A DNA stretch of 64,000 bases from the IMG/VR virus record IMGVR_UViG_3300011115_000708, positions 1 to 64,000 of that record. One strand, written 5' to 3'. The position numbers and the translations under genes were made by a program. Under the pieces are notes generated by a model. That model was not told where the DNA came from. It did not search any database and worked only from the letters and a program-made list of their open reading frames with translations. The stretch comes from a virus. Below, piece after piece: positions 4,045 through 38,602 of the stretch (positions are counted from its first letter, which is position 1; every line of letters begins with the position of its first letter).

Positions 4045-4575
4045 ATGCACGAAAAAAACAAGGCGGGAGGTGGGTCTGCGGCGGCGGCTGGGGCCGTAGT
4101 CAATGGGCCTAGGGGGCGGTTTACGGGCGGGGCTGATCTCACTGACCAGCAAATTGCGTTCATTGAGCTGGTGGCCAATGGGAGGCCTCATCCTGCGGCG
4201 GCGGTGGCCGCTGGATATTCGGATTCGCGCGCTGGTTGGCGCTTACTACGCAATCCAGCCGTGGTCGCCGCCCTCAAGGAGCGGCAAGCGGCCCTCCTGT
4301 CTGGAGACCTGTCGGGCGTGGCCCTGTCTACGCTGCGCGCTGTCATGACTGACGAGACGGCCCCGGCGGCGGCGCGGGTGTCTGCGGCCAAGTGGACACT
4401 GGAGGCGGCTGGGCATGGCCTCGCGGCGGCGCTCGGGTCTGCGCGTCTGGGCCTCGACATTGCAGACAAGCCACTTTCGGCGCTCTCCCTGTCCGAGCTG
4501 GAGGCCATGGCGGAGCAAGCGGCGGCCTCGGTCGAGTCCATCAAGCGTGCGTCTGGCTCGGTGCTGGACGTTTGA
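4045..4575 (+). CDS. terS: Terminase small subunit (module A)
   Basis: LTDQQIAFIE....HPAAAVAAGYS...GWRLLRNPAV HTH typical of TerS. Confidence 0.65.
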   Translation: MHEKNKAGGGSAAAAGAVVNGPRGRFTGGADLTDQQIAFIELVANGRPHPAAAVAAGYSDSRAGWRLLRNPAVVAALKERQAALLSGDLSGVALSTLRAVMTDETAPAAARVSAAKWTLEAAGHGLAAALGSARLGLDIADKPLSALSLSELEAMAEQAAASVESIKRASGSVLDV

Positions 4576-4599
4576 CTACTAATCAAAGGCACATGCCCC

Positions 4600-5250
4600 G
4601 CAATTGCGCGCTAAGGGGTCTGTGGCGCGTCTGTCTGCGTTTTGGGGTATGTGTACCAATTCCAATTTCAAAGAGATTTTAGACTAACAGATCTCTAACA
4701 GATCTCTAACATGTTGAAAGTTGGCACGGAACGTGCGCGAAATGGATGTTTTCCTGTCTGCCTGCGCTCCCCGCGCGCCTGCGGCGCGGTTCCGCCTGCG
4801 GCGGGTTGGATGGTCTGCGCGGTCTGCGCGGTCTGAAAAGTCGGATGGCGGCGGAGCTCGGGGAGGCCGTCCGCCTGTCTGGGCCTGTCTGGCCTGCCTG
4901 TCTGAGCCTGCCTGTCTGAGCAGGCGGAGCCTGCGCCAAGCGGGGCGAAGCCCCGCGAGGGCGCGAAGGCGGCGGAGGCGGAGCGCGCGAAGCCGAGGCG
5001 GAGCCGAGGCGGCGCGAAATGTCGCTCGCTCGCTCCGCTCGCTCGTGGTCAGGCTCGCAGGCTCGCTTCCTGTTTTGACTTGCTCGCCTTGCTCGCTGTG
5101 AATAGCCTCACTGCGTTCGGGTGCTGTTCTGTTCTGCTCACTGCGTTCGCTTGGTTCGCTGCGCTCACTAGCCAGCGAGTGACCCCTGGCGGGGCCCCTC
5201 GGAGGATTTTCAGACTGGTTTCTTGGCCCCACCTAGAAAGTTTGGCTAGT
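4600..5250. repeat. Non-coding repeat/hairpin block; candidate genome terminus/pac or origin
   Basis: CTAACAGATCT tandem (4684-4711), GGTCTGCGC and CCTGTCTG arrays, GCTC repeats, CTCACTGCGTTCG twice (5107, 5137); sharp GC drop after it. Confidence 0.6.
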
Positions 5251-5278
5251 TTGAAAGTTCCCTACTGCATTTTTTTCC

Positions 5279-5306
5279 TTGCATTACAGACAGCAGACAA
5301 TAATCT
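5279..5306 (+). promoter_or_regulatory. Putative promoter of structural genes
   Basis: TTGCAT-N16-TAATCT, spacer begins TACAGACAG. Confidence 0.5.
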
Positions 5307-5312
5307 GCGCCC

Positions 5313-6302
5313 ATGCCAAAGCAAATTTTGAATGCCAATGGAGCAGCCGATGTGATCAATTGGTACGGCGGTGACGGAACCATGGCCGTATCTGGGCAGT
5401 TCAACAGCGGAAGCGTAAAGCTGCAAGTGTCAATCGACAATGGGGATTCCTGGTTTGATGCAAAAGATTCTGGAGGCAATTCATTGCTTTTAAGTGAAAA
5501 TGGTGCTATCAGTTTCTCAGTATCCCCATGTAAATTACGGGCAGTTATGGCGGGAGCTAGTGAAGCTGGAGGAACTCAACAAACCGAAACTCTCACTCTA
5601 GTAGGCCCATCTGCAGTGGCTGCTACTGTAGCGGTGTTGTTCCTGGCGAACCCAGCACTTGGCGACACCATCATGATTAGCAACGGAACGTCGAGAACCT
5701 ATACGTTCACATCAACAAGTGGAACCAACAACATCGTGAGGGGAGCAAACCTATCTGCCACACTCACGGCTATTGCCGCCAAGCTGGTTGCAGACGGATA
5801 CCCGACAGTGGCGAGCCTCGGAACTACCCTGACATTCACTGCGGCGACTGTTGGGACAGTAGGAAATGGTTACAATGTTCAGCTTGTAGGAGCATCACCA
5901 TTCTTCAGCGTAACTGGCAACTACAACTACTCTGGCGGGAAAGACGCTGGAGTCCTAACGGAATCTGGCAACATCACGCTTGAATTTGATTCTAGTTTCT
6001 TTGGATCATTTGTATTGTCTGTGCCAGTTCTAAAAGGAGACATCCGTGCAACCTGGGTTCAGAAGATTGCAAACGCTCTTCAGAACGAAAACCGAATTGG
6101 AAAAAATTACCAGGTCACAAACAACGGATCAATCATAACCATGACCTTCATCGGTTTAGACACATCGAATGACAGCACCTTGCGAGTAAGGGCCCTGAAT
6201 GGATCTCCAAGCCCAGGACTTCCAGCAACATACACGTCAGCAAATGGAACATTCGGTGTGACAACTCTTCCAATCGTAACGGTAGTAATCGAAGAGCGCT
6301 AA
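5313..6302 (+). CDS. Virion structural/decoration protein
   Basis: 329 aa, G/T/S/N-rich beta composition, first gene of the structural block. Confidence 0.6.
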   Translation: MPKQILNANGAADVINWYGGDGTMAVSGQFNSGSVKLQVSIDNGDSWFDAKDSGGNSLLLSENGAISFSVSPCKLRAVMAGASEAGGTQQTETLTLVGPSAVAATVAVLFLANPALGDTIMISNGTSRTYTFTSTSGTNNIVRGANLSATLTAIAAKLVADGYPTVASLGTTLTFTAATVGTVGNGYNVQLVGASPFFSVTGNYNYSGGKDAGVLTESGNITLEFDSSFFGSFVLSVPVLKGDIRATWVQKIANALQNENRIGKNYQVTNNGSIITMTFIGLDTSNDSTLRVRALNGSPSPGLPATYTSANGTFGVTTLPIVTVVIEER

Positions 6303-6320
6303 ACGAATCCAGCACCAAGC

Positions 6321-7139: not shown

Positions 7140-7164
7140 TAACCAACTTTAAGAAAAAAATCAA

Positions 7165-8622: not shown

Positions 8623-8656
8623 CTCTGCACCTCTTGTGAAACCAGACAAATAATCA

Positions 8657-10246
8657 ATGGCAAAGAAAACAAAAGAGCTGACTCCACTAGAACAAGCGGA
8701 GCTCAGACTCAAGGCCACAAACCGACTCATTGCATCAAAGAAGGCCCAGGACTCGCTGATCGAGTTCGTTCGGCTAATGATGCCAGACCCAGAAGATCCA
8801 GATGACGCATCGAAGTCGCGCTACGAGGTGGCCAAGCACCACCAGGTACTGGCAGCGGCGCTGGAGGAGGTTGAGAAGGGAACGATGCCAAGGCTCATCA
8901 TCACGCTCCCACCGCGTCACGGAAAAAGCCAGATTTCCTCCAAGGCATTCCCAGCCTGGTTCATGGGCCGCGATCCATACAGACAGATGATCGTGGCATC
9001 GTACTCTGCTACCATGGCCGAGGATTTCGGTCGAGAGGTAAGATCCTACATGCAGACAACTGCGTTCCAGCAGGTATTTCCAAACTTCCAGCTCCGCAAA
9101 GGCGGCGCAGCCGCAGACCGAGTTCAGTCTGAGCAAGGTGGTATCGGTGTTTTTGTCGGTGCTGGCGGCGCTCTAACAGGTCGTGGTGCTGACTGCCTCC
9201 TGATCGACGACCCAGTTAAAGACCGCGAGGACGCGAATAGCTCAACCATGCGCGAGAAGTTGTGGGGATGGTTCACTGACGTGGCCATGACCCGTCTGAT
9301 GGGCGGGATGGGGCGCGTGGTGATTATCATGACCCGCTGGCATGAAGACGACCTTGTCGGCAGGCTCACAGATCCAAGCAACACCCACTACAATGCAGAA
9401 GAGGCAAAGCAATGGAAGATCATCTCGTTTCCAGCGTTGGCGGAGAACGACGACATCATGGGTCGTGAGTTGGATGAGCCGCTTTGGCCGACCAGGATCA
9501 CCTACGAGTTCCTCAACTCCCAGCGCCGACTCAATCCAAGAGGATTTTCAGCCCTGTACCAGGGCCGTCCTGCCCCCGAGGAGGGGGACTTCTTCAAAAA
9601 AGACTGGCTCCACACATATCAGCCACTCGACCTCCCGAAGAACCTACGATATTACTGCGCGTCTGACCACGCCGTATCTACTGCCCAAGACCGCGACCCG
9701 ACGGTATTGATGACAGTTGGGGTGGATGAGGATGACAATATCTGGGTGTTGCCAGACGTGTTCTGGCGGCGGGTCGAGACAGACGACGTTGTGGACGGCA
9801 TGATCGACCTCATGGCGAGGCACAAGCCGCTCATCTGGTGGGCGGAACGCGGCCACATCTCCAAGTCCATCGGCCCATTCCTTCGCAAGCGCATGGCCGA
9901 GGAGGGCGTTTACTGCGCCGTTGAGGAGGTCGTACCAGTAAAGGACAAGCAGACGCGTGCACAGGCCATCAGAGGCCGAATGGCAATGGGTAAGGTGAGA
10001 TTCCCAGCATTCGTTCCATGGTGGGAGGCCGCTCGCCAGCAAATGCTCACGTTCCCTGCTGGAAAGCACGACGACTTTGTTGACACCTTAGCCTACATCG
10101 GCCTAGGGCTTGGCCGAATGACATCGGCATCGTCATCCAGGAAAGTGAAACCATCTCCAGCAGTTGGAACTCTGGCCTGGGTGAAGTCTAAATCGGACAG
10201 GGATAAGAAGGATGAGTTTATGAGGAAATCCATTGCAGGATTCTGA
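8657..10246 (+). CDS. terL: Terminase large subunit (module A)
   Basis: PPRHGKS Walker A, TGRGAD.LLIDDPVKD, MTRWHEDDL, FPAGKHDDFVD nuclease motif. Confidence 0.95.
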   Translation: MAKKTKELTPLEQAELRLKATNRLIASKKAQDSLIEFVRLMMPDPEDPDDASKSRYEVAKHHQVLAAALEEVEKGTMPRLIITLPPRHGKSQISSKAFPAWFMGRDPYRQMIVASYSATMAEDFGREVRSYMQTTAFQQVFPNFQLRKGGAAADRVQSEQGGIGVFVGAGGALTGRGADCLLIDDPVKDREDANSSTMREKLWGWFTDVAMTRLMGGMGRVVIIMTRWHEDDLVGRLTDPSNTHYNAEEAKQWKIISFPALAENDDIMGRELDEPLWPTRITYEFLNSQRRLNPRGFSALYQGRPAPEEGDFFKKDWLHTYQPLDLPKNLRYYCASDHAVSTAQDRDPTVLMTVGVDEDDNIWVLPDVFWRRVETDDVVDGMIDLMARHKPLIWWAERGHISKSIGPFLRKRMAEEGVYCAVEEVVPVKDKQTRAQAIRGRMAMGKVRFPAFVPWWEAARQQMLTFPAGKHDDFVDTLAYIGLGLGRMTSASSSRKVKPSPAVGTLAWVKSKSDRDKKDEFMRKSIAGF

Positions 10247-10281
10247 AAAATCAAGTAGAAAAATCGCAGACAACTTTCCTG

Positions 10282-10827: not shown

Positions 10828-10829
10828 TC

Positions 10830-12971
10830 ATGATAGACGAAACCTCAATGAGTCCAGAAATGGAAGATCCTAGCGCATCACTTGGCCAAATCACTGAAGA
10901 AGTGGTGAAGAGCGGCATGGTTCGTGACAAGCCAGACATTGATAAGAGCCGCGAGGCGCTTGTCCAGAAATGGTCTGATAAAATTGCTGGAGCAAAGTCC
11001 CATTGGAGAGAAGATTTCGACCGAATGAAGGAGAACCAGGCATTTTTGCGTGGCGCTCAGTGGGATGGTGAGGAAGACGATGAAAAGTACCTAGCCAACG
11101 TGATTCAGCGGCACATCAACCAGCGCGTAGCCGCGCTCTACGCCAAGAACCCTAAGGTGGTAACCCGCAGACGGAAGACTCTCGACTTCAAGGAATGGGA
11201 CGGCAGCGTTGACTCGCTCAACACGCTCCAGGCGGCAGTACAGAACTCAATGATGAGCGGAATGCCGATTGATCCGCAGATTACCAACCTCCTCACAGAC
11301 ATCCAAAATGGATGCAATCGCAAGAAGATGATGCAGAAGGTGGCTGAAACGCTTCAGATCGTGTACGACTACACTCTGAACCAGCAGCTTCCTCCATTCA
11401 AGATCCAGATGAAGCAGCTTGTACGCCGTGTCTGCACCACTGGCATCGGCTACGTCAAACTCGGCTACACCAGGATCATGGAGCGCAGCCCAGACGACAC
11501 TGAGCGCATCAATGGAATGTCTGAACAGATTTCCAAACTTGAAGCTCTCATGGCCGACAAGAATGACGGCGAGATTGAGGATGATTCTCACAAGTTGGAA
11601 GAACTTCGCGGCATGCTGGAAGATTTTAAAACTCGGGACAAGGAAATTACCAGAGAGGGAATCACATTCGACTTCCCATCGTCAACCAGTATCATTATCG
11701 ATCCAGCATGCCGCCATCTTCGCACGTTCCTTGGAGCTCGATGGATCGCCGAGGAGTTCATCCTCACGGTTGATGACGTGAAGGAGATCTATGGCGTTGA
11801 CCTAAAGAATGCTGCAGACGTTACTAACTACGAGACTGGAATTCCAAACCTCAAGCAGAAGATCGAATCTCTGAATGGTGGACTTCGCAAGCGCGAGGTT
11901 GAGGGTGTCTGCGTATGGGTGATCTATGACAAGGGATCTGGTCAGACCATGACGATTGCGGATGGCTACAGCGATTTCCTGGTTGCTCCAAAAGAGCCAG
12001 ACGTGTTCATTGAGCGGTTCTGGCCAATCTTCCCGCTCACCTTCAACGAGGCCGAGGACGAGGAGAGCATCTTCCCACGCTCTGACGTGCATCTTCTCAA
12101 GCCACTGCAGATGGAATACAACCGCTGCCGCGAAGGATTGCGCCAGCACCGTATTGCTAGCCGTCCTAAGACGGCAGTGGCTGCAGGGCAACTTGATGAC
12201 GACGATATGGAGAAGCTCCAGTCGCACCCAGCGAATGCCGTGATTGTGCTGAACTCGCTTCCTCCAAATGGAGACGTGAATAAGCTGCTTCAGCCGATCA
12301 ACGGCCCACGCATTGACACGGCACTCTACGACACAGGCCCAATCTTTGAGGATCTTCTCCGCGTAGTCGGCCAGTCTGATGCATCCATCGGAGCTGCCCA
12401 GTCTGGCGTGACAGCAACTGGAGACTCGATTGCCGAACAGAACCGCACGGTAGCCCTAGCATCGAATGCAGACGATCTTGACGACATGCTGGTAGAACTT
12501 TCTCGCGCAGCGGGTCAGATCCTTTTGGCTGAAATGGATCAGCAGACGGTATTTAAGATCGTTGGCCCAGGCGCTGTCTGGCCTGAGTTGAGCAAGAAAG
12601 ACATTGCAGACGAGTTGATACTCGAAATCGAAGCTGGAAGCTCTGGCCGCCCAAACCGCGCAGCGGAAGTCGCCAACATGGAACGTCTAACTCCGCTTCT
12701 GCTCCAGATCCCTGGGGTTCGGCCAGACTGGCTCGTGAAGCAGATCATCAGCAGAATGGATGACCAACTTGATGTGGCTGAAGCATTTGCTGCCAATCTT
12801 CCGTCGATCATCGCCCAGAACGCCATGCAGAAACAGGCGCAAATCATGGGAGCTGGGATGCCACCAGGCCCAGGGTCGGAGGGTGGCGCTGATAACCAGG
12901 AAGCTCCACCTCAAGGCCCTGCTCCGCAGGGCGCTCCAGCTCAAATGCCGCAGACAATGGCGAATGCTTGA
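10830..12971 (+). CDS. Portal protein (podovirus-type)
   Basis: 713 aa, after terL and before scaffold; Q/P-rich C-tail; EIEAGSSGRPN. Confidence 0.85.
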   Translation: MIDETSMSPEMEDPSASLGQITEEVVKSGMVRDKPDIDKSREALVQKWSDKIAGAKSHWREDFDRMKENQAFLRGAQWDGEEDDEKYLANVIQRHINQRVAALYAKNPKVVTRRRKTLDFKEWDGSVDSLNTLQAAVQNSMMSGMPIDPQITNLLTDIQNGCNRKKMMQKVAETLQIVYDYTLNQQLPPFKIQMKQLVRRVCTTGIGYVKLGYTRIMERSPDDTERINGMSEQISKLEALMADKNDGEIEDDSHKLEELRGMLEDFKTRDKEITREGITFDFPSSTSIIIDPACRHLRTFLGARWIAEEFILTVDDVKEIYGVDLKNAADVTNYETGIPNLKQKIESLNGGLRKREVEGVCVWVIYDKGSGQTMTIADGYSDFLVAPKEPDVFIERFWPIFPLTFNEAEDEESIFPRSDVHLLKPLQMEYNRCREGLRQHRIASRPKTAVAAGQLDDDDMEKLQSHPANAVIVLNSLPPNGDVNKLLQPINGPRIDTALYDTGPIFEDLLRVVGQSDASIGAAQSGVTATGDSIAEQNRTVALASNADDLDDMLVELSRAAGQILLAEMDQQTVFKIVGPGAVWPELSKKDIADELILEIEAGSSGRPNRAAEVANMERLTPLLLQIPGVRPDWLVKQIISRMDDQLDVAEAFAANLPSIIAQNAMQKQAQIMGAGMPPGPGSEGGADNQEAPPQGPAPQGAPAQMPQTMANA

Positions 12972-12998
12972 GAAGAAAAAAACTCAGACAATTTACTG

Positions 12999-13026
12999 TT
13001 GACATACAGACAGAAAAAATTACTCT
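12999..13026 (+). promoter_or_regulatory. Promoter upstream of scaffold/capsid genes
   Basis: TTGACA-N16-TACTCT, spacer begins TACAGACAG. Confidence 0.6.
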
Positions 13027-13032
13027 CTACCC

Positions 13033-14061: not shown

Positions 14062-14079
14062 CCCTAACTAACTACTACC

Positions 14080-15198
14080 ATGGCCTTTACTCAGACCCAA
14101 ATGGATGCTGTTGCAAGCTACGCTCTCGACTTTTTTGTCAAAGGCGAGGCTTTCGACCAATCAATTCAAGATAAACCACTCCTTTCCGCTCTTCGCGGTA
14201 AGCAGAAAACCTTCTCAGGTGGAAAAGGAAAGATTTCCATTCCTGTTGTTGGAGACTACGCAGACACCGATGCTGGTCTTGTAACCCTCGCTCCTGGTGG
14301 AACCTTGGGTTCTGGCGATAATGCCACGAACTTCTTCAAGGGCTATCAGTACGATGATACTGTTGGATTCGTCAACCCGAACTCCGTCAAGCGTGCATCC
14401 TATGACTACGCTGAAATTCACGCTGGTATCAACGTGACATTCACCGAGCTCAAACAAGATGGTATCACCATTGTGGATAGCGCATTCGGTGACAAGACCG
14501 CAAAAGCAAGTGGTCGTGAGATCACCGCGCTGACTGGCTTGCTTGACCACAAGCTCGGATCGATGGCTGAAGGCTGGGCTCGTAAGATGAACCAGATGTT
14601 GTGGCGTACTGGAGCTCAAGACTCCAAGCAGTCGATTGGTCTTTTGGCCTTCATTGTTGATGCTCCAAGTGGATCTACGACCATCGGCGGCCTTAACCGC
14701 AGCACCTACGCATGGTGGCGTAACCGTGCCAGCCTTGGAATCTCTGCAGGTTCCGATGTGTTGACGCAAACGCTCCGTGCTGAAGTTCGCCAACTCACCC
14801 GTTATGGTGGCAAGCCAGACCTCATCCTCTGCGGATCGAAATTCCTCGATGCGCTTGAGAAAGAAGTCGCTGCCAAGGCGCTCTACTCGCAAAGCGGAGT
14901 TGCTGGAAGCAAGAACATTGCTTCGCCAAGCGTGACCATCACTGGTATCGGCACATTTGTGTACGATCCAACTCTTGATGACCTCACCGCTATCATGAAC
15001 AATACCATCGACTACTCGAAACGCTGCTACTTCATCGATACCAAGGCAATCAACCTGTACGTCATGGAAGGAGAGGACAACAAGATCCACTCCCCAGCGC
15101 GCCCAGAGACGAAATACGCTCTATACCGCTCGATGACCTGGACTGGTGGAATGGTCGCTAACCGCATGAATTCGTGCGGCGTGTACTCCATCGCCTAA
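14080..15198 (+). CDS. Major capsid protein (module A)
   Basis: 372 aa, strong codon bias, IGGLNRSTYAWWRN, followed by a terminator. Confidence 0.85.
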   Translation: MAFTQTQMDAVASYALDFFVKGEAFDQSIQDKPLLSALRGKQKTFSGGKGKISIPVVGDYADTDAGLVTLAPGGTLGSGDNATNFFKGYQYDDTVGFVNPNSVKRASYDYAEIHAGINVTFTELKQDGITIVDSAFGDKTAKASGREITALTGLLDHKLGSMAEGWARKMNQMLWRTGAQDSKQSIGLLAFIVDAPSGSTTIGGLNRSTYAWWRNRASLGISAGSDVLTQTLRAEVRQLTRYGGKPDLILCGSKFLDALEKEVAAKALYSQSGVAGSKNIASPSVTITGIGTFVYDPTLDDLTAIMNNTIDYSKRCYFIDTKAINLYVMEGEDNKIHSPARPETKYALYRSMTWTGGMVANRMNSCGVYSIA

Positions 15199-24800: not shown

Positions 24801-27800
24801 CCACTGCTGCTGAAAAGGAGCAGATGATGGCCGAGCAGGCAAAGCAGGAGGATAAGGCATCCGCATCAACAGAATCCAAGCCATATGATCCAAAAGCAAT
24901 CTCATCGCTTCGCGAGCAAGAACGGTATCTTGTAGATAAGCTATGGAATATGAGGAATGGCAATAAGGGAGTGCGAGTTACAGAAGAAGCCCTAGTTAAT
25001 ACGGAAAAAGCGATTGAAAGTGTTAGGGCTGATATTGAGAAATACAGCCAGCAAAATAAGCCAGTTTCACCAACTGAGGAAGCTCCAGCGTCAGCGGCAA
25101 AGCCAACCGAGTCTCCGCAGGAAATAAAGAACTTCAACAACAGATCTCTGCTTGAGCCACAGGAGGGCGGAGACGCATTTGTCCTACAACAAGAGCAGAC
25201 AGTAGATGGAGCTGCTGTCACGCAGGCTGCGGAGCAGGCAAAGGCCAATGAGGCCCTAAACAACTCTCTCCAGCGGAACATCGACTTCGACAAACCAGTT
25301 GAGCCAGGACTTCTTCAGTCGGCAATTGATGCAATTGATGGTCAAATTAAGGCTACGCAAAATTATCAAAAGTCTAATAGGGGACGAGTAAGTTCATTTC
25401 CTGTAGACATCATTGGAGCCCAGGCGTATGAGGCCGTGCTCCAGGTTCTAAAGGCATCACTCAAAGCTGGCCAATCTATCAATAAAGCCGTTGCGTCTGC
25501 GATGGCAACTATCAAGAATACCAAGATCACTAATGAAGAGCGAAGGGCGATTGAAGGAGAATTAAAGTCTCATGCCGTAAAGGTTACTGAGCTTGCCAAG
25601 GGCAATGATGCAAACATGAAGGTTCAGATCGGCCTAATCGCAGAGTCGATGAAGGATGCTACTGGTAAGCCTGGAAATAGGCTCGGTATCAAAAATGAGC
25701 TCGTCAAAAAGTTCCCAGACCAGGCTGAGTACATCAAAAAGAATCTCAACCGCATCATGGATGAGATGGTGGCGCAGGAAGACCTCATCTCAAAATCCAA
25801 GAGTGCATCATCAAAGGAATGGGGAGCATGGGGGCGCGAGCGTGTCGCTCAACTTAATGAGATCTACAGCGATGCTCGGAGCGGTCTGTCTGCAAATAAA
25901 GCTGCGAAAGCAGTTCGCGCAATCCATGATCATCTTTTTACCAATATGGGCAAAAGGATGCATGATATTGCCGATGGTGTGCAGACAGGTAGGGCCAGCA
26001 AAGCTGGAAAGACATATGCTGAAAAGCACTTTATGCTCAAGCCAGGTGAGGATGGAGTGAATATGGTTAGCACTGATATTCTCCAGGAAACCGACTCAAA
26101 CAAACTTCTCAACCAACTCGGAAGACACCTTGATGAACTCAAGGCATCACCAGATTTTGTCAGCATTGCAGACGCAAAGAAATCTGGATTCCTTGAGCGA
26201 GTGATCGAGCATGTGGTTGATCCATCGCGTGATGGAGAGCTTGCCAAAAACCCAACGCTCAAAAAGAGCGTGGAGTTCTTCTCAGCAATTCGCGGACAAG
26301 TTCTCAATTACCTCAAGCAAAACAACATCGAAATTGGTGATCTTGGCCCACGTTCAATGAGCCGATCCATGGATGCGGTTAAGGTATTTTCAAACCGAGC
26401 TGCGTTTTTGAAAGATGCTGCATCGGCTTACGAAGCGAAGTGGGGAGCGGAGCTTCGCATCCTTGCAGCAAAAGCAGCAAAAGCTGGCCCTGGAAGCAAA
26501 GAGCAAAAAGCATTCCTCAAACGTACCGCTGAAATAAACAAGCTCGACTCAAAAGAATTTGCCAACCGATACCTGACGGCCATCGAGGCAGGTGAGCGTG
26601 GTCTTACCTCAGACGGAAATGACTTTTATTCCAATGAAGGTGGCCTCACACCAAACATCTTTAAGGCTCGCGAGTTCGGCCAAGAAGCCGAAACATTCCT
26701 GAGGAAGTACATGATCAATGATCCATTTCAGATGATCAAAAATGAAGTCGTTGCCGCAACTAGGGCTGTGACAAAAGCCAGACTGCTGGGTGGCTTCAAT
26801 GAAAAAGGTGAATTTGACAATCTTGGTGGATGGAAGAAACTTCGTGCAGACCTGGAGGCTGAAGGAAATGGTGACATGGTTCCGCTGTATCAGCAGACTC
26901 TCAAAAACTATCTCAACGTCAAAGGCACAGACAACCAGACAAGCCAGAGCATACTACAAGGCATTCATGGCCTTACGCAGCTAACCTATCTATCAAGAGC
27001 CGCAGTATCATCGTTAGGAGAACCAACTATGGTTGGCGTGAGAGCTGGAAGTCTGCGAGAAGCTGCAAGAGCTAATGTTGAAACAGCAAAAAATTTCGTT
27101 AAGCTGATCCGCAGAGCAAAGCCATCTGAAAGCATCATCATTGCGGAAGCTCTAGGTGAGATCAAGATTGGCCAACATGCAATGATGGGAAGTGAGTCAA
27201 TCAACAATGCTTTCAGTGGTCGTGGGTTATTTGGGAATCTTGTTAGCCAATTCCATGAGAAGACATTTCTAACAGATTTGACAAATGCCACTATGGCCGC
27301 ATCAATGGATGTTGGTAAGGCGTTCATCAACATGAACCTCAAGCTAATAAAAGAAGGTGGAGCTCTAAGCCGTCTGTCTTTGCAAGGATTACGCGAAATC
27401 GGAATCAGCAGGGAAGATCTTCCAATGATGCAGGAGTTTGCTGCCAGATTTGATAAGGAACCAAACTGGTCAAAGCTCGTCCTGGAAGACAGCCCAGCAG
27501 CCGCGAAGTTCCGCGATGCACTCACGTTGTTCAAGCGCACTGGAGGCGCTCTTGACCCTACCAGAGCCTCGAAAACAATGGCATCTACCAATCCGCTTGC
27601 CAGTTTGTTCTATTCGTTGAGTGGATACCTTTACGAGTTCCACGACAAGATTACTAGGCGTTATTTAGCAAGAGGAAAAGCCATGATCACTGGAAAGATG
27701 ATGATGGAAGGTAAAATGCAAAAACTCAAAGGGCCAGAGCGATGGGCAATCTTTGGGGAGATTGCAAAAGGAGCCGTGGCGCTCTATTCGACCCAATATG

Positions 27801-28276
27801 CAATTCAGTTGATCCGCGAAAACCTCTACGCAGACCCAGAGCGCATCGCCAAGGATAAGCGCAGAACTCCTGGTCAAATAGCCAAGCTCAGGGCTGCCGC
27901 TGCTCTCTCGCGCTCGTCTGTGTTCGGCCCATACGACAGCATCTTCAACGCCATCACCCAAGCTCGCTACCAGCGCGATCCAGCTACCACCCTCCTTGGT
28001 GCTGAGATTGGTGGAATCTCAGACCTATTTGGCCAAGTTGCCAACATGATCCAGGGAGAGCGCAATGCTAAAGGAACCAATACCGCAGAGCGGAAATTGA
28101 CCAGAAGCCTCTACAATATGACCGTGGCTCCTGCAGTGGGAGCATTGGCGGCCACCATGCCTGGATATGCAGTTCCATCTACCCTAATTCAAGCTGCCTA
28201 CCATCCAGCAATCAGAGAACAATTTGTCAAAGGAGTGGCTGGGCCCCCAGTATTGCCTAAAATGCCAGCGAAATAA
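21857..28276 (+). CDS. Giant internal virion/DNA-ejection protein
   Basis: 2139 aa; [23 protein letters not shown] start, Gly/Ala membrane-like segments, Pro/Ala linker; last gene before lysis. Confidence 0.7.
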
Positions 28277-28278
28277 TC

Positions 28279-28306: not shown

Positions 28307-28320
28307 CACCACGCAAACAT

Positions 28321-29033: not shown

Positions 29034-29037
29034 AATC

Positions 29038-29220: not shown

Positions 29221-29272
29221 TTTCAGAAAGTGGTTGACCTACCGCAAAAAGCAGTAGAGTCTCCTGCTGCCG

Positions 29273-29494: not shown

Positions 29495-29497
29495 AAA

Positions 29498-30801: not shown

Positions 30802-30819
30802 CCAAACCAAACTACTACC

Positions 30820-31407
30820 ATGTTCAACTCAAAATCTGGAATCCAAGAATCGGCTGCAATTATCCCAGCAGCTACCACATCCAAGGCCGTTCTCATCGTC
30901 CGCGAGCTTAAGACCTCGCAGAAGAGTGGAGCAACCTACCTCGACATCGAGCTTCGATTGGTGGGAGGAAATTACGAAGGCCGCCGTGTCTATGACATGA
31001 TCATGAATCCATTCTGCCCACTCGCCAGCGAAGGTGGAAAGAAAATGGGAATCCTTGGACTCACCCGTATTTGTGAGGCAATCGGAATCTTCAAGATTGG
31101 AGATGAAGCATCCTACACACGCTATGAAGGTCGTGGAATCCATGACGTAATCAACGATATTGAAGGTCAAACCGTAGCGGTGAAGCTCAAGATCGAGAAG
31201 GGTGAGGATGGCCGCGCAGACCGCAACAAGGTCAGCGAATGGCTTACACCTAACCCGCTGTCTGGCGGAGCGCACAAGTCGTGGGTAGAGCTTCATACTG
31301 GAACTCCCAATCCAGCGACTCGCTCAACGGCATTCACTCCGAATCCAACCAGCCAAAATGGAGACACCCCAGCATGGCTAAATGGCCCAGGGAAAGATCC
31401 GTTTTGA
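30820..31407 (+). CDS. ssDNA-binding protein (DUF669-like)
   Basis: Follows Sak4; YLDIELRLVGGNYEGRRVYD, C-terminal PAWL...DPF. Confidence 0.7.
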   Translation: MFNSKSGIQESAAIIPAATTSKAVLIVRELKTSQKSGATYLDIELRLVGGNYEGRRVYDMIMNPFCPLASEGGKKMGILGLTRICEAIGIFKIGDEASYTRYEGRGIHDVINDIEGQTVAVKLKIEKGEDGRADRNKVSEWLTPNPLSGGAHKSWVELHTGTPNPATRSTAFTPNPTSQNGDTPAWLNGPGKDPF

Positions 31408-31425
31408 TATGATAAATTGAAAAAA

Positions 31426-31580
31426 TTGGCAGCAAATGCAGACAGAAGTGAAATTGCACTCGCATTTGTTGCCAAATACTTACAAACTACAGCGTCCAGC
31501 AGTCAGAGATGGTGTCTGGGGAGAACCCAGAACGGGTATTTCTCGTGCGATTCCTTGTGAAATACTGACTGCTGGACGCT
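31426..31580 (+). ncRNA. Structured intergenic element (hairpin plus three-way junction)
   Basis: TTGGCAGCAAATGC/GCATTTGTTGCCAA; AGCGTCCAGCAGTCA/TGACTGCTGGACGCT enclosing TCTGGG/CCCAGA and GTATTTC/GAAATAC stems. Confidence 0.55.
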
Positions 31581-31595
31581 CTTCTTTACAAAAAG

Positions 31596-31913
31596 ATGAG
31601 AAAAATCGAATTCGCCATTCAAATTACGAATTGGCTCGCAAGACAGGACGACTTCAGTCCAATCCACGCACTCTGTTTGATGTGCGTTTCAGACGGTAGA
31701 ACCACAGTTGCTCGCATCCTCGGCAGAATAAGCGGAGTTAATGAGGTTGACATGAGAGATGCCGTTATTGACCTCCACAAATCTGGCTACATCGAATGTG
31801 ATCACGGCAAGAAGAATCACATTGGATCTCCCAAGTGTGAATGCTGGCTCTCGACTCGGGGAGCAATTGTGATTTCAAAAATCCTTAACCCAGCAAAAAA
31901 AGATGCAGCTTAG
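31596..31913 (+). CDS. Winged-helix-like protein
   Basis: ...AVIDLHKSGYIE...WLSTRG pattern. Confidence 0.5.
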   Translation: MRKIEFAIQITNWLARQDDFSPIHALCLMCVSDGRTTVARILGRISGVNEVDMRDAVIDLHKSGYIECDHGKKNHIGSPKCECWLSTRGAIVISKILNPAKKDAA

Positions 31914-33573
31914 ACCACGGCAAGTAACATTCGTTGACCGCTGCCATGCCGCACTGGAATCCAAGGGGAACACCATCGGTGTGGCCACGGTTGGATTCGG
32001 CAAGACGATTGCGTTGTCTGCGCTCGCAGCCAAGTACAAAACTGGGGTGATCCTCCAGCACCGAATCGAACTGCTTGAGCAGAATCGTGACAAGTTCAAG
32101 CGGGTGGCCCCAGGAATGAAGGTGGCCACCTTTGCCGCAGACCACAAACGGTGGGCCGAGGACGGCCATACGTTTGCCATGATGCAGTCGCTTGTGGGAA
32201 ACCTAGATATGATGAAGCCAGTGGACATCGTCGTCATCGACGAGTCACACCATGCCGAATCCAGTTCGTACAAGAAGATCGTGTCTGAGTGCAAGAACCT
32301 CAACCCAGACGTGAAGATCCTGGGAGTGACGGCTACGCCTGAGCGCGGTGACGGCAAGGGGCTGAAGTCCATCTTCTCCAATGTCGCAGACATCGTCACA
32401 CTCCAAGAGATGATTGACTCACGCTTCCTAGTGAAGCCGCGCACCTACATCATCGACATGGGTGTGAAGGACAAGCTGGGGGATTTGAAGAAGGGCAGCG
32501 CTGAATTTAACATGGATGCTGCCGCCACTCTCATGGATGTGGAACCAGTCACCACTGAGGTGATAAAGAACTGGATGACACTGGCACAGGATCGTCGGAC
32601 GATTGGCTTCGCCACCACAGTGGCTCACTCGATCAAGATGACCGAGGCATTCGTACAGGCTGGTGTGAGAGCAGAACACGTCGATGGGACTACGCCATCC
32701 AGAGAGCGCAAAGCAATCTGGAAGCGTCTGCGGACAGGTGAGACTCGCGTTGTCTGGAACTGCGCCGTGGCAACCGAGGGATTCGACGAACCAGGAATCG
32801 GCTGCGTCATCCTCAATCGGCCATCAATGCACCGATCCACGATGATCCAGATGATCGGTCGCGGTCTGCGTACCATTTCTGAGCCACAAAACTACCCTGG
32901 ACTCATCAAAGACGACTGCATCATACTGGACTTTGGTGCTTCGCTTCTCACTCATGGAAGCCTAGAAGCCAATACCAGCATTGAGGAGAATGTCTTCAAG
33001 GATGGCGAGGCTCCAACGAAGGAATGCCCAGAGTGCAATTCCGAGATTCCATCTGGATGCAAAACCTGCCCGATCTGTGAGTACGAGTTTCAGACAGGGC
33101 CGAAATCCGAGAAGGAACAGTACGGAAATTTTGAGATGACCGAGGTGGATCTTCTCAAGCTGTCGCCGTATAGATGGGAGGAAATCTTCACAAACCAAGT
33201 CATTGTTGCAGAAGCAATGACAGCAAGCGCGATTCTCGTTAATTTTCGAGGCACATGGATGGCCTACGGCTTTCGTCTCGACGGTGATCGCAAGACAATG
33301 AAGCTCATCACTGTGAGCCATGAGCGCTTAAACGCGCTGTCGATGGCAGACGACTTCCTCCGCGAGTTCGGTGACGCTACAGCAGCCAAGAAATCAAAGC
33401 GGTGGCTAAATGAGCAGTTATCTGACAAGCAAGCTGCAGTTCTTGGGATAGTAGCCGATCCAACAAAATCAGTGTTTGCCCTAAAGATGAATCGTTATGA
33501 GGCATGCTGTAGAATCACTTGGAAGTTTAATGAGGAAAAAATAAAGAGAAGTATTATGGCGATAAATTCTTGA
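31903..33573 (+). CDS. SF2 DEAD/DEAH helicase with zinc ribbon
   Basis: LRPRQ, TVGFGKT, IDESHH, TATPER, TEGFD, QMIGRGLR, CPEC..CPIC. Confidence 0.92.
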   Translation: MQLRPRQVTFVDRCHAALESKGNTIGVATVGFGKTIALSALAAKYKTGVILQHRIELLEQNRDKFKRVAPGMKVATFAADHKRWAEDGHTFAMMQSLVGNLDMMKPVDIVVIDESHHAESSSYKKIVSECKNLNPDVKILGVTATPERGDGKGLKSIFSNVADIVTLQEMIDSRFLVKPRTYIIDMGVKDKLGDLKKGSAEFNMDAAATLMDVEPVTTEVIKNWMTLAQDRRTIGFATTVAHSIKMTEAFVQAGVRAEHVDGTTPSRERKAIWKRLRTGETRVVWNCAVATEGFDEPGIGCVILNRPSMHRSTMIQMIGRGLRTISEPQNYPGLIKDDCIILDFGASLLTHGSLEANTSIEENVFKDGEAPTKECPECNSEIPSGCKTCPICEYEFQTGPKSEKEQYGNFEMTEVDLLKLSPYRWEEIFTNQVIVAEAMTASAILVNFRGTWMAYGFRLDGDRKTMKLITVSHERLNALSMADDFLREFGDATAAKKSKRWLNEQLSDKQAAVLGIVADPTKSVFALKMNRYEACCRITWKFNEEKIKRSIMAINS

Positions 33574-33607
33574 CTTTAATTCTAGGAAAAAATAGAACCT
33601 CCGAGAC

Positions 33608-33943
33608 ATGAAATTATTCAAGCCGAAAAGCCAAGACATGGGCGAAATTCATCTTGCTATTGCCAAGGAAATCTTGTCCCTAATCGACCCGCCAATCTCA
33701 ATTGCATTGGTATTGAAGAACAGGCCGAGCCACTACATCTCCTCATGGAGAAATGTGCTCTTCCACGTCTTTAACAAGAACATGGGAGTCAACCAGTCAT
33801 CAATCGCCATGTGGTTCAAGGTGACAGAACGCACGGTGTGCAGGGGAATCAATCTCACAAAAGAAGTGCTCTCAAAAGAATCAGATGAGGCACAGCAACT
33901 GAAAGAAATCATCAAAAAATCAATCGAGAAAACAACAAAATGA
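33608..33943 (+). CDS. HTH protein (DnaA C-terminal-like)
   Basis: R..LFHV......QSSIAMWFKVTERTVCRGI. Confidence 0.5.
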   Translation: MKLFKPKSQDMGEIHLAIAKEILSLIDPPISIALVLKNRPSHYISSWRNVLFHVFNKNMGVNQSSIAMWFKVTERTVCRGINLTKEVLSKESDEAQQLKEIIKKSIEKTTK

Positions 33944-34689
33944 TCCAGGAACAAATCGACAAAGCAATGATCGCCAAGCAGATGGCGCAAGAAAAAAGAA
34001 CCTACCTTGGAGCCTCGCGTTGGGGTGAAGAGTGCATGAGAAGGTTGGCTTACGAGTATCACCACACTCCCGCAGACGGAGAGGAAGACTTCCCAGGCAA
34101 GATCCTGCGAATCTTCGACATGGGACATGATGGTGAGACTCGCATGACCGAGTACATGCGTCTGGCTGGATTCGATCTTATCACCGAGAAGGCGAACGGC
34201 GGACAGATGGGATTCTACGCCATGGACGGCAAGCTAAAAGGACATTGCGATGGGGTTATTACAGGAGGCCCAGTGGATCTGCCGTATCCGCTAATCTGGG
34301 AGCACAAGGCGCTCAACGACAAAAGCTGGGCAGACACGAAAAAGAAGGGCGTGAAGGAAAGCAAGCCAGTTTACTGGAGCCAGATCCAAACCTACTGCGC
34401 CTACCTCGATATTCCCAATGGCGGTCTGTTCACGGCCATCAACCGCAACACAGGGGAAATCTACTCAGAGCACGTCGAATTTGACCCAGTTGCGGCACAG
34501 GCGCTTTCAGACAAGGCAATTAGGATCGTACAGACACGAATCCCAGAAGAGATGCCAAAGATGAGCAATGATCCGTGCTTCTTCAAATGCGGTTGGTGCT
34601 CATTTAGAAAGCGTTGCCACAACATCAAGGAGATGACCATCTCAACTCCAGCCGCAGCAGCTAAAGAATTTCCATCCTGGCTCAAATGA
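33940..34689 (+). CDS. Cas4-like PD-(D/E)xK exonuclease
   Basis: YLGASRWGEECMR, GHCDG, WEHKA, QIQTY, C..C...KRC iron-sulfur ligands. Confidence 0.85.
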   Translation: MIQEQIDKAMIAKQMAQEKRTYLGASRWGEECMRRLAYEYHHTPADGEEDFPGKILRIFDMGHDGETRMTEYMRLAGFDLITEKANGGQMGFYAMDGKLKGHCDGVITGGPVDLPYPLIWEHKALNDKSWADTKKKGVKESKPVYWSQIQTYCAYLDIPNGGLFTAINRNTGEIYSEHVEFDPVAAQALSDKAIRIVQTRIPEEMPKMSNDPCFFKCGWCSFRKRCHNIKEMTISTPAAAAKEFPSWLK

Positions 34690-36965
34690 TCAACCAAGAG
34701 GACATCACCACTTACTTGTCCTGCCTATTTGCCAATCATGTCTGGGACAAGGACGAGTTCCTTATTACCAGAGGAGTTGGCGAGAAAGGTACGAGACAAG
34801 AGGGAATTTACGCTGAAGACCAGCATTTCCAGCCAGCCTTATTCTCGATCACAGACGCGTTGTTCTCCAGCGCCGAGCGGTATCGGGATCACTTAGTCGG
34901 CATGTTTGTCATCCCTGCAATCTTGAACGATTCAAGGGCCAAGGAGGAAAATGTGAAGCTGCTTCCAGCACTCATCCTTGATCTGGATGATGTGCCAGCA
35001 CAGCAGGCGATTGAGTGGCTTGAGGAAGAAATTGGATCGCCGTCGATGGTGGTGGCAAGCGGAGGCAATAATCAGTACGGCCCAAAGCTCCACGCCTACT
35101 ACGTCTTTGACGAGCCGCTTCCACCAGCGAACGTACTGCCACTGGTGACCAACCTAGCATCCATGCTTGGAGCAGACCCGAGTTTTGCCAGAAGGACTCA
35201 ACCGATCCGAATCCCAGGAACGATCCACCAGAAGAATGGAGAAGCGAGCTCAGTCAAGTTGTTGTCATGGAGCTCAGACACGTTCTCAGAGGATGAACTG
35301 ATCGAGAAGATCAAGAAGGCCGACCCATCGCCATGGGCATCTTCCAAGACGATGATGCCGATTGTATCGGCTGGCGTATCGTTCTCATCCACGACATCAA
35401 CAGACAGCTCGGCCTTGCTAACCACTACCATCCGCGAGGGTGGAATGGATGGGATCACTCGATGGGATGCCTTCTCAAAGGTGGCTGGACACTACCTCAG
35501 GGTGTGCCGCGAAGGCGGCATAAGCGAAGCGGAAGCATTCGCTGCTGTCTGCGGATGGACACTGGCTCACATGAGCCCACCGTGGCCAGAGGATCGTATT
35601 AAGCAGGAGTTCCGCGCTCTTCTCACAAGGGAGGTTGGAATCCGTGGCCCAATGCCAGAGATGAAGGCGTACCAGCCAATCGTGTCGGCATCTCACAAAT
35701 CAGATGGACTTAAAGCCTGGGCCGCTCACCGATGGGTGACCGCACCAATTCCGCAACACACGTTCCTGGTGGATGCACTTGTCATCAAGGGCGAGCCACA
35801 CTTGTTTGTTGCCGAGGGCGGTGCTGGAAAGACATTCCTCATCGCAGACTTGGCTATGAAGATCGCAGCTTGGCAGGATGGTGACGACACCGACTGGTGC
35901 GGCCAGAAGATCAAGAGCGGTGGTACATCAGTGCTGATCCTATGCGAGGACTCGCAGACAGAGATGCATATTCGCCTGATGGAGTTGGACAAGACTGGCC
36001 TGATCCAGAAAGCTGGTGACAAGCTCATCGTGATGCCGATGACGGCAATCGGCGGATCATTCCCGCTCACCGAGCGGAATCCAAAGACTGGACTCTCCAC
36101 CACCAGCCAGCGCTGGAGCGAAATGCTTGGTCTGTTGAAACAGCTACCAGACATCGCGCTGGTTGCCATCGACACGCTCAATTCGATCACCCACGGCGAT
36201 GAGAACTCGGCAGTGATTATCTCCGAGATGATGCGTGAGGCACACCGTGTATGCGGCGAGCTTGGCGCTGCCCTTGTGATCAACCACCACCTTCGTAAGT
36301 CGAACGAGCCGATCAAGAGCCTAGAGGATCTGCGGGATTCAATCCGTGGATCTACTGCTATTCCATCCTACTTCCGAATCAATTTCGGGATGTTCAGAGC
36401 GAATGACTGGGAGCGCAGATGCAAGGCGCTCAACGTGAAGCCAAATAAGAATGCGATCTGGCGCATGGGAATCGCCAAGTGTAACATCATGGGTCTAATT
36501 GAAGATGAGCGCACCTTGGTGCGAGTCAATGGCGGCGTAGTGGACATGACCAAGCAAGATCCATTCTCCAAGGCAGACACTGGAGAGCGAGTTTCCTGGC
36601 TCGTCTTAGCATCACAGATTGCGGCCCAGGATGGATATCCATTCAGCATGGGCGGCAAGGGGGCATCCAACGGCTACTATGTCAGACGGAACCAGCTTCC
36701 AGAGATGCTAGTGAAGCTAGGGCCAATCGAGATTGGCAAGATATTCGATGCGGCCATGGCTGGAAAGCAGCTCGTATTCGCAACTGCAAAAGGTGGAGCG
36801 TCTGCGAAATGGATCGATGTCCCCAGCGGCCCATACGCCAAGAATGACTCTGGTGAGGAGCTTGCCAAGGGTTCTTGGAAGTTCCCAGACTGGAACGAGT
36901 GGGTTTACGATCCATCTCAAGGAATCTGCGTGAAGAAAAAGAAAAATAACGAGATGACTTTGTGA
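34686..36965 (+). CDS. Primase-helicase (RepB-like primase plus AAA_25/RepA helicase)
   Basis: LDLD, PSMVVASGG, LHAYY, PIRIPGT; AEGGAGKT, IDTLN, NHHLRK, IRGS. Confidence 0.85.
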   Translation: MINQEDITTYLSCLFANHVWDKDEFLITRGVGEKGTRQEGIYAEDQHFQPALFSITDALFSSAERYRDHLVGMFVIPAILNDSRAKEENVKLLPALILDLDDVPAQQAIEWLEEEIGSPSMVVASGGNNQYGPKLHAYYVFDEPLPPANVLPLVTNLASMLGADPSFARRTQPIRIPGTIHQKNGEASSVKLLSWSSDTFSEDELIEKIKKADPSPWASSKTMMPIVSAGVSFSSTTSTDSSALLTTTIREGGMDGITRWDAFSKVAGHYLRVCREGGISEAEAFAAVCGWTLAHMSPPWPEDRIKQEFRALLTREVGIRGPMPEMKAYQPIVSASHKSDGLKAWAAHRWVTAPIPQHTFLVDALVIKGEPHLFVAEGGAGKTFLIADLAMKIAAWQDGDDTDWCGQKIKSGGTSVLILCEDSQTEMHIRLMELDKTGLIQKAGDKLIVMPMTAIGGSFPLTERNPKTGLSTTSQRWSEMLGLLKQLPDIALVAIDTLNSITHGDENSAVIISEMMREAHRVCGELGAALVINHHLRKSNEPIKSLEDLRDSIRGSTAIPSYFRINFGMFRANDWERRCKALNVKPNKNAIWRMGIAKCNIMGLIEDERTLVRVNGGVVDMTKQDPFSKADTGERVSWLVLASQIAAQDGYPFSMGGKGASNGYYVRRNQLPEMLVKLGPIEIGKIFDAAMAGKQLVFATAKGGASAKWIDVPSGPYAKNDSGEELAKGSWKFPDWNEWVYDPSQGICVKKKKNNEMTL

Positions 36966-37007
36966 AAAACGATTGACAGATAACTATGAAAAGCTCTCGA
37001 TAGGCAT

Positions 37008-37202
37008 ATGGAACGTAGCGAATATAAAGGGCGCAAGTTTTTTGTTGCCTATCGAGAACAAGACCGATCTTTTCGGGTTGACACTCCAGATGGATATTTC
37101 ATCTTCGACAAGAAAACCACACCAAGAAGCGCACAGCTTCAAGCCGATTACCTGAAACAAAAATATGAGCGATCCACACAGCGCAGGGAAGGGGACGAAT
37201 AG
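37008..37202 (+). CDS. Hypothetical protein
   Basis: 64-aa ORF in a co-oriented small-gene cluster. Confidence 0.4.
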   Translation: MERSEYKGRKFFVAYREQDRSFRVDTPDGYFIFDKKTTPRSAQLQADYLKQKYERSTQRREGDE

Positions 37203-37359
37203 ACGAGCCTATAGCTCTCAAGCATGGCATGACAACTTTGACAAGATTGACTTCTCAAAGAAGCCATTCATGGATGAGGTGAAGAAGGTCTGCAATACGG
37301 TTGGAAACTGTCAGTGTGCAGATACAGGAAACGAGATGACCCTTGATGAGATTAAGTGA
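37165..37359 (+). CDS. Small conserved phage protein
   Basis: AGKG..RR......W..NFDKI motif. Confidence 0.55.
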   Translation: MSDPHSAGKGTNRRAYSSQAWHDNFDKIDFSKKPFMDEVKKVCNTVGNCQCADTGNEMTLDEIK

Positions 37360-37491
37360 TGAAAGTAAAACAACAGACAACATGAAAGAAATACTAACAT
37401 ACGCAGGAATATGGGTCGTTGCATCAATCGTGACGATGGTCTTCTGGAATAAATTCGTGGATCATGATGACGAAGATAACTGGCCCAAAAT

Positions 37492-38136
37492 ATGAAAAAC
37501 AATGATCCAAAGGGTGCAATTGGCGACACCAAATCACCGCTAGGGCTAATTCCATCCTGCGCGATGGAACAGACAGCGTGGGTACATAAACTTGGAGCCA
37601 AGAAATACGGCCCATACAACTGGCGCAAGACTGGTGTCTGCGCTACTACCTATGTCAATGCCATCATGCGGCATCTCAATGCCTGGAAGGACGGCGAAAC
37701 ACTAGATCCAGAGAGTGGTTTCTCCCACCTGGCTCACATTGCCGCATCCTGCAATATCTTGATGGACGCAGACCACTGTGGAACTCTTGACGATGACCGA
37801 GACATTACCCCAGACAATCAGGTAGCATTCGATGATTTAACTCCTGTGAAGTCGTTGCCAGACGAGATGTACGACTTCATGAAAGAAGGTGATCGTGTCT
37901 GTGAAGGTGATGAAGGGTATTCTGATACTGGAGACTATTGGTTTGTCACCGCCTTCAAGACTAAGGACAACTACCGAGTTCCGAAAGGAAGAAAGTACCG
38001 CCGTATAAAGAATGGTGGATTAGAGAAAGAAAGCGTGTCTGCAGATGAATGCAAATGCGGTAGAATCAAGATCAAGCATTTCCTTTTAGGAGTAATCTGC
38101 GAAGACTGCGAAGTAAAATGGCAAGACCCATACTAA
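37492..38136 (+). CDS. dATP/dGTP diphosphohydrolase-domain protein (DUF5664-like)
   Basis: DPKGAIG..K.PLGLIP, LGAKKYGPYNWR, RHLNAW.DGE.LDPESG.SHLAH. Confidence 0.8.
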   Translation: MKNNDPKGAIGDTKSPLGLIPSCAMEQTAWVHKLGAKKYGPYNWRKTGVCATTYVNAIMRHLNAWKDGETLDPESGFSHLAHIAASCNILMDADHCGTLDDDRDITPDNQVAFDDLTPVKSLPDEMYDFMKEGDRVCEGDEGYSDTGDYWFVTAFKTKDNYRVPKGRKYRRIKNGGLEKESVSADECKCGRIKIKHFLLGVICEDCEVKWQDPY

Positions 38137-38294
38137 TGAAACACCCATGCTCACTTTGCGGATCAACGAATTGGCCCGATCCAGAATCACTTTGTCCGTT
38201 ATGCGATGGGCCTGCCGAACCTGGCCCAGATCCAGATGAGGACTGCCCAGACCACGACTCGCATGACGAAACTATTTATCAAGAAAATATATGA
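38136..38294 (+). CDS. Small Cys-rich acidic protein (not in ORF track)
   Basis: MKHPCSLCG...CPLCDG; start and stop overlap both neighbours. Confidence 0.45.
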   Translation: MKHPCSLCGSTNWPDPESLCPLCDGPAEPGPDPDEDCPDHDSHDETIYQENI

Positions 38295-38602
38295 GTGATA
38301 CACCAGAAACAGATAATCAATCATTCGTTGCAGAACATAACCTCGGTAAAGAACTATGCGTCGAGGCGTGGTTTTGTGAAATCATGGAACGCGAACGAGA
38401 TGCGTGGAAATTGAACTCTCAATCAAATCGTGATGAATATCATAGATTGATGATTGAAGTAGATGATCAGAATTTTCTAATTAAGAACATCATCAAATTA
38501 CTGGAAATACCGGAGAATCTATCTAAGGCAGAACATGGTGCTAAAATACATAGAACCATCAAAGAACTGCTTGAGATAAAAAAATACTGCAAAGTACCCT
38601 AA
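38291..38602 (+). CDS. MSDTPETD-family hypothetical protein
   Basis: MSDTPETD...ERERD. Confidence 0.6.
   Translation: MSDTPETDNQSFVAEHNLGKELCVEAWFCEIMERERDAWKLNSQSNRDEYHRLMIEVDDQNFLIKNIIKLLEIPENLSKAEHGAKIHRTIKELLEIKKYCKVP

Follow-up and report, generated by a model that had tools for sequence, protein, structure and literature searches.

Why should one part of a viral contig lack the tetranucleotide CCGG entirely when the adjoining part carries it freely? The question is raised by the IMG/VR virus record IMGVR_UViG_3300011115_000708, a single contig of 81,028 bp, of which bases 1–64000 form the window. An earlier note on this DNA had distinguished a module A without CCGG from a module B in which the site is common. 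It had attributed the absence in A to the purge of a site cut by a host restriction enzyme, and the presence in B either to a different history or to protection by a C5 methyltransferase encoded in B. Our analysis indicates that A and B are most likely two separate phages. The loss of CCGG in A is well supported as a selective purge, made almost wholly through synonymous codon choice, and thus as restriction-site avoidance. The proposed protection of B by its methyltransferase is not supported. We consider it probable that A is kept free of CCGG by selection from a CCGG-cutting host enzyme, and that B differs in its range of host strains.

Loss of CCGG from phage A

The window contains 68 CCGG sites. 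Twenty-five of these lie in an island at 1671–3347 and one is at position 4363. None was counted in 4364–38509 (34,146 nucleotides (nt)), which rules out an ordinary CCGG frequency in A. The site is also absent from positions 74020–81028 of the contig and from its left end, which belongs to phage A (positions 1–1670, G+C content (GC) 0.63, 0 sites against 10–12 expected). The earlier note had placed the CCGG-free tract between about 4370 and 38509; the absence is real, but the start coordinate omits the island that interrupts it. CCGG resumes at 38510, 40867, 41068, and 41711, followed by 38 further sites up to 63996. The reappearance at 38510 and the higher frequency from 40867 had been read correctly, and B carries 73 sites against 84–90 expected.

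For the tract 4371–38509 (GC 0.50), the expected number of CCGG sites is 132 in a zero-order model, 86 in a first-order Markov model, and 66 in a maximal-order Markov model; the observed number is 0. The figure of about 130 given previously for uniform base composition is right for the zero-order model, and the other models give 66–86. When the 4-mers of the A tract are ranked, CCGG is lowest by a wide margin (the runner-up has a ratio of 0.62).

The signature is also clear at the level of codons. Synonymous codons were permuted within each of 26 predicted A genes in 100 shuffles, a null model that preserves the proteins and the codon usage of each gene. The shuffled genes contain 79.5 ± 7.2 CCGG sites (minimum 61), and the observed count is 0. 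NCC codons of four-fold boxes are never used ahead of a glycine codon (0/215, against 21 % in other contexts). The CCG codon is never followed by a codon starting with G (0/205, against 23 % elsewhere), and CGG never follows a codon ending in C (0/152, against 13 % elsewhere). The sub-words are normal, with 396 CCG against 468 expected, 573 CGG against 583 expected, and a normal frequency of CG. It is therefore the tetramer itself that is depleted, and the cause is selection, not composition or simple deamination decay.

The purge extends to close relatives of A. Two IMG/VR contigs of the A clade (L002 and L003, 86–91 % nucleotide identity) have 2 CCGG sites against 31 expected and 0 against 27, so that selection has been maintained over roughly 10 % divergence. 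The proposal of a purged restriction site is borne out by this persistence, together with the codon context and the tetramer specificity. Two metagenome contigs at greater distance (L276 and L277, TerL 81 % identical, GC 0.61–0.63) have normal CCGG counts, 128 against 142 and 122 against 128 expected. The purge thus belongs to the near A clade and is not an ancient trait. Several remoter relatives of A have lost CCGG independently. The idea that A has long lived in a CCGG-restricting host holds only in part: the purge is selective, but it is limited to the near clade, and 27 sites have been regained.

Most of the regained sites fall in the island, which lies over a pair of genes.

1626–2513, DUF7192 (CobT-like) gene, covered by the island
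1671–3347 (−), CCGG-dense island in A, 25 sites, 19 of them in the CCSGG context
2482–3765, AAA_5 (CobS-like) gene, its C-terminal two thirds covered by the island

The segment 1553–3323 aligns at about 74 % nucleotide identity to phage contigs of higher GC (L193–L195, GC 0.60–0.62) in which CCGG is normal. A recent transfer from a relative of high GC is the probable origin of the island. The open reading frame (ORF) of the ATPase stays open across the island junction, so the gene looks recombinant and not misassembled.

Contig layout and avoidance profiles of A and B

Self-comparison of the contig revealed an exact direct repeat of 2,028 bp, with 38136–40163 identical to 73645–75672. This cassette is the join between genomes A and B.

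75.8–81.0 kb and 1–38.1 kb of the contig, phage A, about 45.5 kb, podophage
4364–38509, A core, the CCGG-free tract, with tail fibre genes, an M15 peptidase, and a replication module up to a MazZ-like gene (Pfam)
38136–40163 (+), cassette common to A and B, second copy at 73645–75672, GC 0.43, one CCGG at 38510
40302–73644 of the contig (40302–64000 within the window), phage B, about 35.5 kb

The sole CCGG in each cassette copy is at offset 374, which is position 38510 in the first copy. The A/B boundary proposed earlier, 38.5–40.8 kb, is essentially correct, as the switch in CCGG coincides with the cassette and the lone site lies inside it.

The A and B sides carry two complete and unrelated sets of virion and replication genes. 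Read depth was taken from Logan contigs of run X1, the probable source run, over 31000–48000. Runs X5–X10 cover little of the stretch and were set aside as evidence. It is 25.8 on the A side, 64–67 (66.6) on the B side, and 93.9 in the cassette. The cassette depth equals the sum of the two sides, which points to A and B as separate replicons of unequal abundance. A contig of run X1 at the depth of B enters the cassette at 38136 from the far end of B. The closest homologues of the B methyltransferase (89–91 %) lie on contigs of which the longest is 34.5 kb, and these lengths are consistent with separate replicons. Most likely the record of 81 kb arose by a figure-8 assembly that joined two phages through the cassette; a rare A/B cointegrate is the alternative. 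The abrupt change of avoidance profile and the contig depths mark this viral contig as chimeric; without them it could be taken for a genome of 81 kb.

The ends of the contig also repeat each other (2–678 and 80343–81028, 92 % identity, the final ~90 nt identical). A wrap-around by way of two strain variants could account for this, as could a terminal repeat that has diverged. One contig of run X1, at a depth of 22.8, near that of A, skips 78 nt in the cassette ORF 38291–38602 (window 38314–38393). The record gives one version of the cassette in both places, and the true copy in A may therefore be a different one. ARAGORN returned no tRNA or tmRNA across the window, including 38609–38683.

The two phages also differ at other restriction sites. 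The counts in the following list, and those for CAGCTG and AAGCTT after it, are given as observed against expected from synonymous shuffles.

GGWCC, A 0 against 47, B 2 against 41, avoided by both
GRCGYC, A 0 against 26, B 1 against 21, avoided by both
GGYRCC, A 0 against 26, B 1 against 19, avoided by both
CCSGG, A 0 against 27, B 0 against 25, avoided by both
CCGG outside the CCSGG context, A 0 against 55, B 50 against 56, avoided by A alone
CGATCG, A 0 against 9, B 29 against 15, avoided by A alone
CYCGRG, A 4 against 16, B 20 against 18, avoided by A alone
RGCGCY, A 47 against 34, B 1 against 21, avoided by B alone
RCATGY, A 20 against 20, B 1 against 13, avoided by B alone
YGGCCR, A 51 against 38, B 7 against 24, avoided by B alone
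CTGCAG, A 19 against 16, B 0 against 15, avoided by B alone
AGCT, A 160 against 164, B 68 against 123, avoided by B alone

GGATCC, TTCGAA, AAGCTT, and CAGCTG are likewise avoided by both phages (in A, CAGCTG 0 against 17 and AAGCTT 1 against 15). The mild CCGG deficit of B is entirely due to the purge of the CCSGG subset. B-clade contigs of other samples carry the B profile, and A-clade contigs carry the A profile.

Judged from these site counts, the multi-site purge of A is the pattern of a phage whose host is rich in restriction–modification systems. The set of sites avoided by both phages, together with the identical cassette, indicates an overlapping host population with many Type II restriction systems. 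The sets private to A and to B, in turn, point to lineages exposed to different enzyme repertoires. The long ORFs scanned in A yielded neither a methyltransferase nor a restriction nuclease. A, with no methyltransferase detected, tolerates the sites that B has purged, so that differing selective histories are required in any case. An avoidance profile of this kind is a fingerprint of the host restriction repertoire and could serve for host assignment. Our search of the literature on cyanophage site avoidance and on this set of avoided motifs gave nothing useful.

Two side observations concern these profiles. GATC is strongly over-represented in B (274 against 186, z = +9.8), as is CGATCG, which A lacks altogether. 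Two other IMG/VR contigs, L026 and L030 (GC 0.44–0.45), avoid the union of the A and B sets (CCGG, GGWCC, GRCGYC, RGCGCY, RCATGY, and CTGCAG).

The methyltransferase of phage B and the rival explanations

If A and B met the same CCGG-cutting enzyme, A could be safe by having no sites and B by methylating them. The enzyme proposed for this role is encoded just beyond the cassette.

41126–42142 (+), C5 cytosine methyltransferase, alpha chain P0001, 338 aa, PF00145 (E = 3e-37) and TIGR00675 (105.5 bits, above the cut-off)

P0001 has motifs I (FxGxG type), IV (PCQ), VI (ENV), VIII (QRR/QRK), and X (GNxVxP), which are invariant in the alignment of its homologues, and a Cys-rich variable region. The gene is intact and collinear with a large family of homologues. 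When the variable region was compared with solved methyltransferase structures, only the catalytic core aligned.

The gene is a presence/absence polymorphism among B-like phages. The IMG/VR contig L165 (83–89 % nucleotide identity to B) lacks it through an exact skip of 1,014 nt at an ATGAC microhomology (window 41121–42134, L165:1262–1266). The same skip is present in Logan contigs of runs X2 and X4, which come from two separate studies. These natural variants provide a ready test of what the enzyme protects. L165 keeps CCGG without the gene (16 sites against 20 expected), and the X2 and X4 contigs likewise have it at normal frequency. In its comparison with B, 10 sites are shared, 5 are found in L165 only, and 7 in B only. 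This turnover is the same as in L004, a relative that bears the methyltransferase, and it looks neutral.

The protection model can draw on the fact that B has an intact C5 methyltransferase and that none was detected in A. The identical 2-kb cassette and the many common avoided sites make shared hosts probable, and CCGG belongs to a small group of C-containing sites avoided in A but kept in B. However, the variants without the gene speak against it, and so do L026 and L030, in which CCGG is nearly absent (1 against 21–36 expected) although they carry a homologue that is 60 % identical and differs in its variable region. B itself has removed every CCSGG, which means that its CCGG-containing DNA is not generally safe. 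If one reasons from sites avoided in A but retained in B, CGATCG and CYCGRG are candidate targets just as good as CCGG. M.EcoHK31I, the one characterized enzyme of the architecture described below, recognizes YGGCCR (PMC2836561). From these comparisons, the methyltransferase does not seem to be the reason for the kept CCGG sites, and we regard protection of B by this enzyme as unlikely. The alternative that the earlier note had also offered, a different history for B, fits better, given that the avoidance differences run both ways. As a separate observation, the homologue in L026 and L030 has a long low-complexity stretch in frame 0.

Three other explanations were considered. Methylation of CCGG on phage DNA by the host, followed by deamination of 5-methylcytosine, would convert the sites by mutation; in A, CCAG (329 against 283) and CTGG (315 against 286) do occur a little more often than expected. 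The excess is just as large for all other CCGN and NCGG words, though, and decay would leave residual sites, not 0 of about 80. At least 14 unrelated palindromes have been purged as well, some of them without CG, and mutational decay is thus very unlikely. It appears highly improbable that the contrast has no biological meaning and was merely produced by a chimeric contig. A figure-8 walk through the shared repeat is very probable in itself, in view of the depths of 26x, 66x, and 94x and of the B-depth contig that enters the cassette at 38136. Such a chimera explains why two compositions are adjacent, but not why one genome has no CCGG at all, and independent contigs of the A clade are equally purged while those of the B clade carry the B signature. 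It is scarcely credible, lastly, that A encodes a CCGG-specific nuclease directed at host DNA and is itself safe through lack of sites. Several A proteins have no family assignment, and nothing direct favors the idea. The scanned A proteins matched no restriction endonuclease family; nothing turned up beyond a Cas4-type exonuclease and a weak match of the Lar-like/endonuclease VII kind. Such a nuclease would cut the 25 sites of A's own island.

The explanation we hold to be probable thus remains selection on A by a host enzyme, with a different host-strain range for B. The recent A lineage would have been selected to lose all sites of a CCGG-cutting Type II enzyme (HpaII/MspI type) of its host strains. 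The B lineage would have been selected only against the CCSGG subset of CCGG, plus a different set of extra sites. The host population of B would overlap that of A, given the shared cassette and the shared avoided sites, and the CCGG contrast would come from differing host-strain ranges and restriction repertoires. The purge with its codon signature, its occurrence in close relatives, the boundaries, the two-genome structure, and the B variants that keep CCGG without the methyltransferase are shown by the data. That a host enzyme of this specificity exists, and that host range explains the contrast, we infer. Several points weigh against this account. The cassette is identical in both phages, an argument that A and B encounter each other in one and the same cell; wholly separate histories are then a less simple assumption. 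The present A genome has 27 CCGG sites (the 25 of the island, plus one each at 4363 and within the cassette), and unless these imports are very recent, CCGG restriction is not absolute in the current host of A. L165 is only 7.6 kb long, so that a methyltransferase could lie elsewhere in its genome.

The first of these points leads to a different possibility, in which A and B do meet the CCGG enzyme in the same cells, and B, including its variants without the methyltransferase, survives by an anti-restriction function other than methylation. We consider this rather unlikely. A candidate for such a function would then be sought among the unannotated early genes of B that adjoin the cassette. If true, it would make A and B a natural pair showing two strategies against one enzyme, and would offer a handle on a new anti-restriction protein.

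Gene content and comparison with known systems

The main genes of the two phages outside the regions discussed above are as follows.

8657–10246, TerL of A, T4-type (Pfam)
10830–12971, portal of A (Pfam)
14080–15198, capsid of A, SU10-type (Pfam)
15713–16393, adaptor of A, SU10-type (Pfam)
21857–28276, 2139-aa protein of A
37492–38136, MazZ-like gene, the last in A before the cassette, PF18909 N-terminal domain of dATP/dGTP diphosphohydrolases (E = 1e-28)
42253–43758 (+), SNF2 helicase of B
57087–58022 (−), capsid of B, GP7-type
59890–61575 (−), portal of B, Mu-type

Pfam assigns further A genes to AAA_24, a helicase, an AAA_25 ATPase, and the CobS/CobT-like pair. B also encodes a Mu-type protease, Bbp16, and a BT4734-type primase, in addition to the C5 methyltransferase. 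No PurZ-like partner of the MazZ-like gene was seen in A. A reading of this gene as a sign of a Z-genome (2-aminoadenine) was rejected, since A avoids many sites that contain A/T, which would be needless for a Z-genome.

Megablast of A and B against cultured phages gave no matches. A scan of genome contigs with the B portal gave only weak partial matches, to one Betaproteobacteria and one Chitinophagaceae metagenome-assembled genome, both unrelated. By TerL, the nearest cultured relative of A is the Microcystis phage Mae-Yong1326-1 (OP028995.1, 50.7 % identity). The two phages have the same layout; both encode TerL, the portal, the capsid, a giant internal protein, the CobS/CobT pair, and a RecA-family ATPase. 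Unlike A, Mae-Yong1326-1 has a GC of 0.72 and abundant CCGG (870 sites). It is no guide to the host of A or to its site avoidance, and a cyanobacterial host is only a lead.

The methyltransferase of B can be compared with known enzymes in its gene layout. Motifs I–VIII and X are encoded in frame 0, and motif IX is missing from the alpha chain. It is found in another frame of the same gene.

41964–42017 (+), motif IX, KLNPRWVETLMGLPVGWT, in the +1 frame (ORF 41121–42122) inside the alpha gene, putative beta chain

The +1-frame arrangement of motif IX is present in 60 of 80 homologue loci, and motifs IX and X are separated there by a constant offset of 98 nt. In a set of 55 distinct sequences, the stretch with motif IX varies chiefly at the third codon positions of the +1 frame (0.28, against 0.05 and 0.015), and the stretch with motif X at those of frame 0 (0.43). 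Each frame thus shows a coding-type pattern of substitution where its own motif lies. Over the alpha gene, the +1 frame contains 1 stop codon against 7.9 expected (minimum 3 in 500 shuffles). M.EcoHK31I is a natural alpha/beta heterodimeric C5 methyltransferase, in which the alpha chain bears motifs I–VIII as well as X, and the beta chain, with motif IX, is read from a different frame within the alpha gene (PMC2836561). By its gene layout, the B enzyme matches this rare type of overlapping-gene architecture, which appears to be widespread in phage metagenomes. A double programmed frameshift was set aside in favor of this documented arrangement. Two features differ from M.EcoHK31I, which has a short internal ORF. 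In the B gene the open +1 frame spans the entire alpha coding region, and the sequence WxTPxAxDxKxG, which we read as part of the target-recognition domain, is also in the +1 frame in many homologues.

The multispecific C5 methyltransferases of the Bacillus phages SPR and phi3T are phage-borne and protective. The B enzyme resembles them in being carried by a phage with no restriction gene adjoining it. It differs in that the gene is dispensable in close relatives, in which the CCGG content is unchanged.

Avoidance of palindromic restriction sites is classical in coliphages, Bacillus phages, and cyanophages. A is like these cases in the complete absence of a palindrome at synonymous positions, in the restriction of the trait to one lineage, and in the avoidance of other Type II sites too; nothing essential differs. 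The phenomenon is therefore ordinary and well known, but A is a very clean case, with about 80 sites removed by codon choice alone. What is unusual in A is how many sites have been purged (at least 14), how it contrasts side by side with a co-occurring phage carrying the identical cassette, and the recent re-import of 27 CCGG sites.

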